A stretch of 44,739 nt of DNA, taken from the IMG/VR virus record IMGVR_UViG_2713896776_000002; one strand, written 5' to 3'. Below, in pieces: positions 19,001 to 19,812 of the stretch (position 1 is the stretch's first letter; every line of letters starts with the position of its first letter). A program made the translations under genes and the position numbers. This DNA is from a virus. Lineage: Duplodnaviria; Heunggongvirae; Uroviricota; Caudoviricetes. Under the pieces are notes generated by a model. The model searched no databases. It was given only the letters and a program-made list of their open reading frames with translations, and was not told the DNA's origin.

Positions 19001-19006
19001 TATAAT
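19001..19006 (+). promoter_or_regulatory. Candidate -10 hexamer (TATAAT) for the peptide/membrane-protein operon
   Basis: Perfect TATAAT 33 bp upstream of the ATG at 19039; weak -35. Confidence 0.3.
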
Positions 19007-19038
19007 CTGGATATCCCAACAACAGGTAGGAAGGAAAT

Positions 19039-19122
19039 ATGTACGTAGATAGCAATGAAAAATTTCATGTTCCGGTAAATCAGAGACCAGCACCGATCCC
19101 TGAGCCGAAACCTGAAATGTAA
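19039..19122 (+). CDS. Small proline-rich peptide 1 (27 aa; MYVDSNEKFHVPVNQRPAPIPEPKPEM)
   Basis: ATG preceded by AGGAAGGA RBS; stop lies 10 nt before the membrane-protein start; shares the H-[VI]-P ... RP-x-P ... PKP motif with two downstream mini-ORFs. Confidence 0.35.
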   Translation: MYVDSNEKFHVPVNQRPAPIPEPKPEM

Positions 19123-19132
19123 GGGAATAGAG

Positions 19133-19612
19133 ATGACTCGAGACGATCTAGCATTCGATATTCATTATTCTTTCTTTCTTGAGAAAATGAATTACACCCT
19201 TTTAAATCGGATAGACAAGAGCATAACTCTTGTTCTCATTGTCTTGGGCTTTTCTGTTTTTGCGCCATATAGCAATATGTTTATTTTTGGCGCATCTGTA
19301 GCTATTTTGTCGGTGCTTCAATTGGTATACCAATTTGGGCAGGAAGCTGGCTTATCAAAGGAACAGATGCGACAGTATAAAAGGTTGATTGTTGAGTTTT
19401 CCTCCCTTTCTGATGACGAACTACGCACTCGGTTTTTAAAGGTTCAAGACGCTGATAGTAATCCATGGAGATCTTTACAAGATGCTGCGTTCAAACGGAC
19501 CTGTATTGCGCTGGGACGTGTTGATGAGTCAGAAATATCATTCATGCATAGCGTTATCGCATGGTTTGCTGGAGATTTGCCTCGGTCAAAAAGGTGTAAT
19601 AATGACAAATAG
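19133..19612 (+). CDS. Predicted membrane protein with two N-terminal TM helices (candidate exclusion/abortive-infection factor)
   Basis: 159 aa; hydrophobic segments ITLVLIVLGFSVFAPY and MFIFGASVAILSVLQLVYQFG; lies between the early-left operon and cI, convergent to cI. Confidence 0.5.
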   Translation: MTRDDLAFDIHYSFFLEKMNYTLLNRIDKSITLVLIVLGFSVFAPYSNMFIFGASVAILSVLQLVYQFGQEAGLSKEQMRQYKRLIVEFSSLSDDELRTRFLKVQDADSNPWRSLQDAAFKRTCIALGRVDESEISFMHSVIAWFAGDLPRSKRCNNDK

Positions 19613-19718
19613 AATTCCCATAATCCCTAACCATGTACCTCCAAAGCCCAGACCACCATCACCAAAGTCACACAGGCTTTATGAGTATGAATTAATAATG
19701 GATTCTATATTGAGATGA
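19602..19718 (+). CDS. Small proline-rich peptide 2 (38 aa; MTNRIPIIPNHVPPKPRPPSPKSHRLYEYELIMDSILR)
   Basis: ATG with AAGGTG RBS, overlaps the membrane-protein stop; paralogous motif to peptides 1 and 3. Confidence 0.3.
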   Translation: MTNRIPIIPNHVPPKPRPPSPKSHRLYEYELIMDSILR

Positions 19719-19722
19719 CCAA

Positions 19723-19812
19723 ATGAATGCATTTATATATACATGGAAAGAGGATCATATACCCTTAAAACCTCGTCCTTCACCGCCAGAACCGAAGCCA
19801 AAATCCCGTTAA
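19723..19812 (+). CDS. Small proline-rich peptide 3 (29 aa; MNAFIYTWKEDHIPLKPRPSPPEPKPKSR)
   Basis: Starts 4 nt after the peptide-2 stop; weak RBS; same motif family. Confidence 0.25.
   Translation: MNAFIYTWKEDHIPLKPRPSPPEPKPKSR

Follow-up and report, generated by a model that had tools for sequence, protein, structure and literature searches.

The virus record IMGVR_UViG_2713896776_000002 (Caudoviricetes) is represented by a stretch of 44,739 nucleotides, which we refer to as the window, and it carries near its repressor gene a compact cassette of four cistrons on the plus strand (19039-19812) that was delineated by reading the window together with a list of its open reading frames (ORFs). 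The first cistron encodes a 27-residue microprotein of an upstream class (U, or P1; 19039-19122; MYVDSNEKFHVPVNQRPAPIPEPKPEM), the second a 159-residue membrane protein with two transmembrane segments (2TM; 19133-19612), and the third and fourth encode microproteins of a downstream class, namely D1 (P2; 38 residues; 19602-19718; MTNRIPIIPNHVPPKPRPPSPKSHRLYEYELIMDSILR) and a second downstream copy, D2 (P3; 29 residues; 19723-19812; MNAFIYTWKEDHIPLKPRPSPPEPKPKSR). The U stop codon lies 10 nt before the ATG of 2TM, the D1 ATG overlaps the 2TM stop by 11 nt with D1 in the +1 frame relative to 2TM, and 4 nt separate the D1 stop from the D2 ATG. The D1 start is the last ATG within a longer +1-frame ORF, and both U (AGGA) and D1 (AAGG) are preceded by Shine-Dalgarno-like sequences. 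A first-pass annotation of this DNA had described three mini-ORFs, a 2TM ORF, a TATAAT hexamer and the spacings between them, and all were found where it had placed them.

The same annotation had proposed that the three peptides share a motif even though their nucleotide sequences differ. An ungapped core, H-x-P-x-x-x-R-P-x-x-P, is indeed common to U, D1 and D2, and the shared arginine is encoded by AGA in P1 and P2 and by CGT in P3. When all six frames of the 44.7-kb window are translated, the pattern H[VILMA]P...RP.{1,3}P has exactly three matches, each on the plus strand within the cassette, versus a chance expectation from first-order Markov shuffles of 0.04 on average and 1 at most.

To compare the cassette across phages, 83 homologous 2TM loci were gathered from IMG/VR, GTDB genomes and Pectobacterium genomes, 71 of which are non-identical and complete, with 2TM identities ranging from 100% down to 42%. 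U was present in 70 of the 71 loci (69 by regular expression and one variant, L065, by eye) and was lost in L066, while at least one D ORF was present in all 71 (one in 39, two in 31 and three in 1), such that a second or third downstream motif ORF occurs in 32 loci. About 90 distinct peptide sequences were recovered. When frameshifted or stop-bearing peptide ORFs were looked for in the homologous loci, the ORFs proved intact in essentially all of them, which does not refute the selection at the peptide level that had been proposed for this cassette.

Codon-level comparisons upheld that proposal. In motif-anchored alignments of the peptide cores, the ratio of nonsynonymous to synonymous differences (pN/pS) was 0.37 for U and 0.45 for D in frame versus 1.26-2.1 in the other frames across both classes (1.3-1.7 for U), values that come from non-independent pairs with saturated pS, although the contrast between frames relies on neither. 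In the same alignments, stops were absent in frame and numbered 6-54 out of frame. Within the peptide cores, variation is greatest at the third codon position; Arg+6 is encoded by AGA, AGG, CGT, CGA, CGG and CGC, and the invariant prolines use all four of their codons. Shine-Dalgarno-like 4-mers precede 39 of 44 U starts and 45 of 63 D starts, versus 17% of all ATGs in those loci, and the U stop lies 4-21 nt before the 2TM start (9 nt in 24 of 44 unique loci). Since the peptide frames relative to the 2TM gene vary over all three frames (31/7/6 for U and 25/20/18 for D), the peptides are independent ORFs rather than shadows of the long gene. Taken together, the comparative data indicate that the mini-ORFs are under purifying selection as peptides, i.e. 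that they are real genes.

Class profiles were made by anchoring the peptides on the core histidine (position 0). The U class reads Y-4 E-3 E-2 [R/K]-1 H0 [M/L]1 P2 x x [Q/K]5 R6 P7 [P/E/A]8 x P10 P11 K12 P13 followed by an acidic tail, and is net acidic owing to the Y-E-E before the histidine and the D/E tail. The D class reads P-5 ... H0 [V/I/A]1 P2 P3 [K/R]4 P5 R6 P7 P8 x P10 followed by a short, basic, K/P-rich tail, and its members are cationic with variable C-termini (PKG, PGK, PKPK, AR, KK). H0 and P7 are invariant across both classes. Consecutive prolines are found in many U and D peptides as PP or PPP (RPPAPP, RPEPPPKP, IPPPPPKP) but are not invariant, as the window U (QRPAPIPEPKP) and several orthologues have none and keep the P-x-P register. 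The U of L069-71 (RPAPKPEPKP) and several D peptides (HSPFAPRPVPRPAP), which also lack Pro-Pro, retain the P-x-P spacing, H0 and R6, and Pro-Pro-free orthologues of both classes retain H0, P2, R6, P7 and P10.

The reading frames around the motif also vary in their arrangement. Two tandem motifs occur in single ORFs at three loci (L055, L060 and L070). D1 orthologues start M-[ST]-[KRN]-P, and the frame upstream is closed by nearby stops in most loci. Expression of D1 mainly by +1 frameshifting from 2TM was considered and rejected, as D1 comes with a Shine-Dalgarno sequence and an ATG of its own and that upstream frame is closed in most loci. In a 180-residue Pectobacterium protein (P0022), the C-terminus of 2TM continues in frame into D1, which keeps its own Met, and this fusion recurs in three Pectobacterium genomes. 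A database protein of 115 residues (P0078) has U fused to the N-terminus of 2TM, which may be an assembly or frameshift artefact.

The peptides were found almost nowhere except beside the 2TM gene. In the collected loci, 204 motif matches adjoin the 2TM gene on the same strand, whereas the other ~466 kb, read on both strands, contain 23, of which two (both in L068) are genuine peptides assigned to the wrong zone at the end of a contig. The back-translated sequence H-[VI]-P-P-[KR]-P-R-P-P gave 23 matches in 2.9 million IMG/VR contigs, every one of them on a contig with a 2TM gene. Among 30 metagenome matches to the motif DNA pattern, 16 directly adjoin a 2TM gene, including all of the mini-ORF type, and the other 14 lie within long, GC-rich reading frames and are apparently fortuitous. 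The genes are tightly packed (gaps of +10, -11 and +4 nt in the window) and co-occur in 70-71 of the 71 loci and in distant phages, as expected of a toxin-antitoxin or abortive-infection module. This exclusive co-occurrence supports the first-pass suggestion that the peptides and the membrane protein belong to one system.

Distant 2TM relatives for which DNA was obtained again have an upstream mini-ORF just before the 2TM start: MNAPKPDAHKPINERPVPPPKPQRKS in L146, MSDSDNFHVLPRPAPAPKPEPGQDKK in prophage Fels-2 of S. Typhimurium LT2, ...NDFHILHKPAPPEEKKTDDEE in Yersinia phage vB_YenM_42.18, ...VPNHLNPKPIRPTPPPP in Providencia phage PSTNGR2lys, whose annotation lists it as a 38-residue coding sequence, and the proline-poor variant ...EDFHVKYQPRQQQQQ in L090/L091. 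Three of the six single-protein scans for distant related loci gave no match. Downstream D copies were seen solely in the enterobacterial lambdoid clade, and the ancestral unit is therefore U plus 2TM, with the D genes as later duplications. In Fels-2 (L147, NC_010463.1 ~30250-30800), neither the 2TM homologue nor the U mini-ORF is annotated. The coding sequence annotated over the same DNA on the opposite strand, STM2733.1, is probably spurious.

The 2TM protein has hydrophobic segments at approximately residues 27-47 and 46-68. An AlphaFold2 model (mean predicted local distance difference test score, pLDDT, of 77) places helices at residues 3-43 and 50-87, forming a long helical hairpin that is followed by short helices, and the predicted architecture is thus an N-terminal cytosolic helix, a two-transmembrane hairpin and a helical cytosolic C-terminal domain. 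RefSeq lists 2TM as a hypothetical protein and annotates none of the window peptides. The protein matches phrog_6315 (E = 2.8e-51), a PHROG without an assigned function; its family comprises 133 clusters at 90% identity, and a profile of the family gathers 251 clusters at 50% identity, which are stand-alone proteins of about 150-180 residues. PADLOC and Pfam (E<0.1) gave no match for the window 2TM, and Pfam, PADLOC and PHROGs placed the peptides in no informative family.

Several weak matches concern SLATT proteins (SMODS and SLOG-associating 2TM effectors). Three 2TM homologues are named SLATT in UniRef, and the best Foldseek matches of 2TM in BFVD are mostly SLATT-annotated proteins with marginal E-values. 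When 25 close and 30 distant family members were searched, Pfam SLATT_5 matched 1 of the 25 (E=0.034, below threshold) and NCBIfam SLATT_5 and SLATT_4 matched 2 (best 5e-4) and 1 of the 25, respectively, all below curated thresholds; TIGR04402 was also among the sub-threshold profile matches, and no SLATT match was obtained from Pfam or NCBIfam in the 30 distant members. The 2TM protein is like SLATT effectors in being small and in residing on mobile elements, and it may resemble them in its predicted N-terminal helix, two-transmembrane hairpin and short cytosolic helices. In contrast with SLATT proteins, for which no such partners were found described, its partners are solely proline-rich peptides of 24-40 residues, and no SMODS, SLOG, TIR, RT or nucleotide-signalling partner is present in the cassette, in which the 2TM gene and mini-ORFs stand alone between conserved phage flanks. 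Thus, the profile and model matches weakly suggest that 2TM is SLATT-like, with membership of that family unproven. AlphaFold2 modelling of the Pectobacterium D1-2TM fusion gave a pLDDT below 50 in the linker and about 70 over the motif, a rise that is compatible with docking of the peptide and is no proof of it.

The cassette occupies an exchangeable slot in the immunity region. To its right, 17-18-nt repeats (ATCTAACTTAACTTAGTT) at 19952-19969 and 19988-20005 on the minus strand recur in the cI-cro intergenic region (20682-20747) and, as judged from the DNA, are operators for the repressor cI (20033-20659, minus strand, with Peptidase_S24 and HTH_3 domains). A promoter scan identified a pL-like promoter, TTGCCA-17-TAGATT (19979..19951, minus strand), which points leftward through the cassette. 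These oL-like operators and the promoter directly adjoin the cI stop on its left and separate cI from the cassette, which is flanked by pL on one side and by the early-left genes yfdP and yfdQ on the other and is antisense to pL and convergent with cI. With oL and pL in this position, transcription from pL runs antisense across the cassette before it reaches yfdP and yfdQ.

This arrangement does not agree with the rexAB-like position that the first-pass annotation had assigned to the cassette. Like lambda rexAB and immunity-region morons, the cassette is exchangeable accessory cargo near the repressor gene of a lambdoid prophage and has its own terminator; unlike rexAB, it lies beyond oL/pL from cI, downstream of and antisense to the pL transcript, and is not co-transcribed with cI. 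No RexA or RexB similarity was found for the cassette products in Pfam or PHROG. In Fels-2 and the Yersinia phage, the U-2TM pair is likewise opposite in strand to all annotated neighbouring early genes, and such a context would mark a moron that the lysogen expresses and that early lytic transcription overrides.

The borders of the slot contain several candidate regulatory elements. The TATAAT hexamer at 19001-19006 (plus strand) lies in the conserved left flank and is a candidate promoter for the cassette. While the -10-like hexamer of the first-pass annotation is thus present, a consensus scan did not call it as a full sigma-70 promoter, its -35 is poor, and homologous loci keep just xxTAAT of it. 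The cassette ends at an intrinsic-terminator-like hairpin and T-run on the plus strand (19843-19872; stem 19843-19864, tail TTTGTTGCTA) that was identified by a terminator scan, and Rfam contains no known cis-regulatory RNA matching within the cassette. A repeat search also found a 14-nt inverted repeat whose arms, AATCTGGATATCCC at 19004-19017 and GGGATCTCCAGATT at 19819-19832, are 93% complementary; the repeat brackets the exchangeable cargo exactly, with both arms in flanks common to phages with other cargo. The sequence CCCAACAACA(A)GG is present twice around the TATAAT (18981-18998 and 19014-19026), in flanks conserved despite differing cargo. The inverted repeat and these copies may be recombination, processing or operator sites.

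Of 5426 complete E. coli genomes, 1123 share the cassette flanks, with the TATAAT region and the terminator among the conserved parts. The 2TM-peptide cargo is present in 53 E. coli genomes, all at ≥99% identity, and about 1070 others have different inserts of ~735-950 bp in the same slot. The alternative cargo that was examined, in PhiR29_1 (L001, 2600-3160), Kati (L002, 2640-3074) and the E. coli inserts, comprises at least five or six insert types, including a coiled-coil CxxC...CxxC protein and an 'ECs1072 family' protein. PADLOC returned no match among the alternative inserts, and the cargo of PhiR29_1 and Kati contains no such peptides. The slot looks like an unexplored cargo hotspot.

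Several further observations concern the pL transcript. Just downstream of pL, the reverse complement of 19830-19843 reads CGCTCTTTAACAAT on the minus strand, overlapping the plus-strand terminator of the cassette; this is a boxA-like antitermination element, the rrn boxA being UGCUCUUUAACAA. Within the part of the pL leader that separates the cassette from yfdP, 18705-18929 (minus strand) has a sub-threshold Rfam match to the small RNA STnc100 (RF02076; 40.5 bits versus a gathering score of 47, E=1.9e-6), with a weaker second match at 17147-17326. An inverted repeat upstream of yfdP (18619-18643 / 18683-18707; 25-nt arms, 84% complementary, 39-nt loop) may form a structured RNA or a terminator. 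A 226-residue ORF (18208-18888, minus strand) extends yfdP, the first of the early-left genes, upstream and is annotated in this form in phage Kati; PhiR29_1 and RefSeq have a 120-residue YfdP, to which RefSeq adds an adjoining 'frameshifted' pseudogene.

We tentatively favour, at a little short of an even call, the reading in which 2TM is a SLATT-like membrane effector whose cytosolic domain is bound and regulated by the peptides, in the simplest case through inhibition by labile, antitoxin-like molecules. The region would then be a self-contained prophage 'moron' operon consisting of a candidate promoter, U, 2TM, D1, D2 and a terminator, and its insertion antisense just downstream of pL would lead to expression in the lysogen and to its being run over by pL transcription during lytic growth. 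The core would be an ancient two-gene module in which a 24-40-residue U is translationally coupled to a SLATT-like two-transmembrane inner-membrane protein, the peptide gene having been duplicated one to three times downstream, as the D copies, in the enterobacterial lambdoid clade. The peptides would act as trans-acting ligands, with an extended, polyproline-II-like segment that displays His0, Arg6 and the side chains around them to the helical domain of 2TM in the cytosol; the conserved non-proline positions (H0, R6 and Y-4/E-3/E-2) point to such side-chain recognition. Short-lived peptides would keep the membrane-damaging effector inactive in the manner of an antitoxin, and when their supply stops, for example upon host shut-off by a superinfecting phage, the effector would fire, resulting in exclusion or abortive infection. 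In this sequence of events, we infer the translation of the cassette, the physical binding, the direction of regulation, the toxicity and the phage-exclusion phenotype.

Stated more broadly, microproteins with the core H-x-P-x3-R-P-P-x-P could be a hitherto unrecognised class, encoded by temperate phages of Enterobacterales, that serves as diffusible polyproline-II ligands. Several labile peptides might gate a SLATT-like pore, as a new peptide-gated kind of toxin-antitoxin or abortive-infection switch, or the peptides might be bacterially made analogues of proline-rich antimicrobial peptides (PrAMPs) that bind the ribosome tunnel and selectively stop translation during superinfection, a proposition that we consider possible and on the whole doubtful.

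A number of points weigh against antitoxin-like control of 2TM by the peptides. Translation, binding and toxicity of the cassette products rest on inference, and the pN/pS values carry the limits given above. No SLATT profile match exceeds a curated threshold, and PADLOC, Pfam and PHROGs provide no function. The Pectobacterium fusion, which keeps its own Met, may reflect a trivial 1-nt indel between overlapping ORFs, and the pLDDT rise over its motif could report local polyproline geometry instead of docking. Multi-copy antitoxin genes downstream of a toxin would be unusual, and the acidic U tail may partly be a by-product of encoding the Shine-Dalgarno sequence of 2TM.

It is also conceivable, if unlikely in our estimation, that the mini-ORFs are cis-acting translational regulators, in which proline pausing that is sensitive to elongation factor P (EF-P) or resembles translational arrest sets the level of 2TM or the stability of its mRNA, with the released peptides having no function. 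Given that U ends 4-21 nt before the 2TM start, translation of 2TM is probably coupled to that of U. PP or PPP is common among the peptides of both classes, and polyproline stalls ribosomes when EF-P is absent. The conserved basic residue 3-5 positions before Pro-Pro recalls the R-A-P-P and R-A-G-P arrest motifs, and the cassette resembles arrest or pausing leader peptides (SecM, the RAPP-type ApdA and ApdP, and EF-P-dependent polyproline upstream ORFs) in having a short, proline-rich ORF directly before, and probably coupled to, a membrane-protein gene, with a conserved Arg upstream of the prolines.

However, a cis-acting function would explain the coupling of U and leave the D copies unexplained. 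Consecutive prolines are not conserved (in the window U, the L069-71 U and several D peptides), no stalling element is conserved in every U and D member, and pausing alone leaves the strong conservation of Y-4, E-3, E-2 and H0 unexplained. One to three copies lie downstream of the sole long gene with the terminator next, where nothing is left to regulate, and unlike arrest leaders the family includes tandem motifs within single ORFs and, in one lineage, a fusion to 2TM. The predicted RNA fold at the U-2TM junction is no different from that of shuffled sequences (z = 0.37). The regulatory leader-peptide interpretation that the first-pass annotation had offered as an alternative thus fits poorly. 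We prefer trans-acting peptides because the D copies follow the only long gene and adjoin the terminator, because Pro-Pro is not conserved while specific non-proline side chains are, because tandem and fused versions exist and because the junction RNA lacks significant structure.

We regard as quite improbable the proposal that the peptides are themselves effectors, namely analogues of PrAMPs, made inside the cell, with the ribosome exit tunnel or DnaK as their target. They would block translation of a superinfecting phage or, once released, of neighbouring cells, with 2TM as an exporter, immunity factor or co-effector. The peptides do resemble insect PrAMPs (apidaecin, type II; oncocin and pyrrhocoricin, type I) in their length of approximately 20-30 residues, their P-R-P-P-x-P core, the cationic character and K/P-rich tails of the D class, and an aromatic or His-aliphatic-Pro element before the core (PMC11549390). 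The D core P5-R6-P7-P8-A9-P10 (PRPPAP) matches five of the first six residues of the conserved apidaecin pharmacophore PRPPHPRL, which ends in a free Arg-Leu, and libraries of in-vivo-expressed Api genes have been screened for inhibitory potency (PMC11549390). The type II Arg-Leu C-terminal warhead is absent from the cassette peptides, however, as none ends in RL and the D C-termini are variable. Furthermore, the ancestral U class is net acidic, unlike any ribosome-tunnel binder, and a constitutive translation inhibitor would poison the lysogen. The spacing from the aromatic residue or His to the Arg is one residue longer in the cassette peptides than in apidaecin and oncocin, and type II PrAMPs act by trapping the release factor or arresting ribosomes at stop codons. 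When the U and D alignments were used as profiles against PDB chains, nothing beyond chance matches at E>0.5 was found, in a library that omits most PrAMP chains (<20 residues). Lastly, insect PrAMPs differ from the peptides described here in that the latter are made in bacteria from a prophage, without secretion or processing signals.

The idea that the motif is functionless as a peptide and arose by chance, as a DNA repeat or as an out-of-frame shadow of, e.g., the antisense pL leader can draw on the absence of all of these ORFs from RefSeq annotation and on pL transcription crossing the region on the other strand, but it is effectively refuted by the comparative data, namely the excess of motif matches over chance, the in-frame constraint (all other frames of both classes exceeding 1.2) with synonymous turnover at invariant residues, the ORFs being intact in ~70 divergent loci and distant phages, and the varying frames relative to the neighbouring gene, and we consider it extremely improbable.

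The compact, translationally coupled operon, in which a small gene precedes a two-transmembrane protein, resembles toxin-antitoxin (TA) or abortive-infection pairs with a small membrane toxin, such as CptA(YgfX)/CptB, holin-antiholin and P22 SieB/Esc; its prophage location close to pL is like that of sieB, and its expression in the lysogen is expected. No sequence similarity to TA or abortive-infection pairs was detected for the cassette products with Pfam, PADLOC or PHROGs. In contrast with TA pairs that have small membrane toxins, the partner here is a polyproline-type microprotein of 24-40 residues that is present in 2-4 paralogous copies flanking the membrane gene. Other roles for the peptides were considered and rejected: they have no lipobox or signal sequence, as o-spanins or lipoproteins would, no export signal, as TonB-like periplasmic rods would, and no secretion signal, as eukaryote-directed SH3 ligands of the EspF/TccP type would.

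No paper describing the peptides was found in the full-text library that was searched with the peptide strings, WP_000196297, STM2733.1 and phrog_6315, and no curated family or defence-system model covers them. We class the cassette among the prophage morons or TA-like modules whose effector is a small membrane protein; it would become a new category if gating by the peptides or targeting of the ribosome were shown. The peptides add to prophage biology an unannotated microprotein family that spans phages of Escherichia, Salmonella, Klebsiella, Enterobacter, Cronobacter, Pectobacterium, Sodalis, Yersinia and Providencia, and they provide the first functional handle on the widespread 'hypothetical' membrane-protein family phrog_6315. 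Tractable hosts are at hand, as E. coli 042 has the exact cassette and S. Typhimurium LT2 has a distant, unannotated version in Fels-2. The placement of antisense cargo just downstream of early lytic promoters further marks a place in which to seek lysogen-specific genes. Should gating of a SLATT-like effector or PrAMP-like activity prove to be their function, the peptides would represent a new design principle in defence and possibly a source of peptide inhibitors, and in either ligand mode the cassette would constitute a new mechanism of prophage exclusion that is encoded by genes that annotation pipelines miss.

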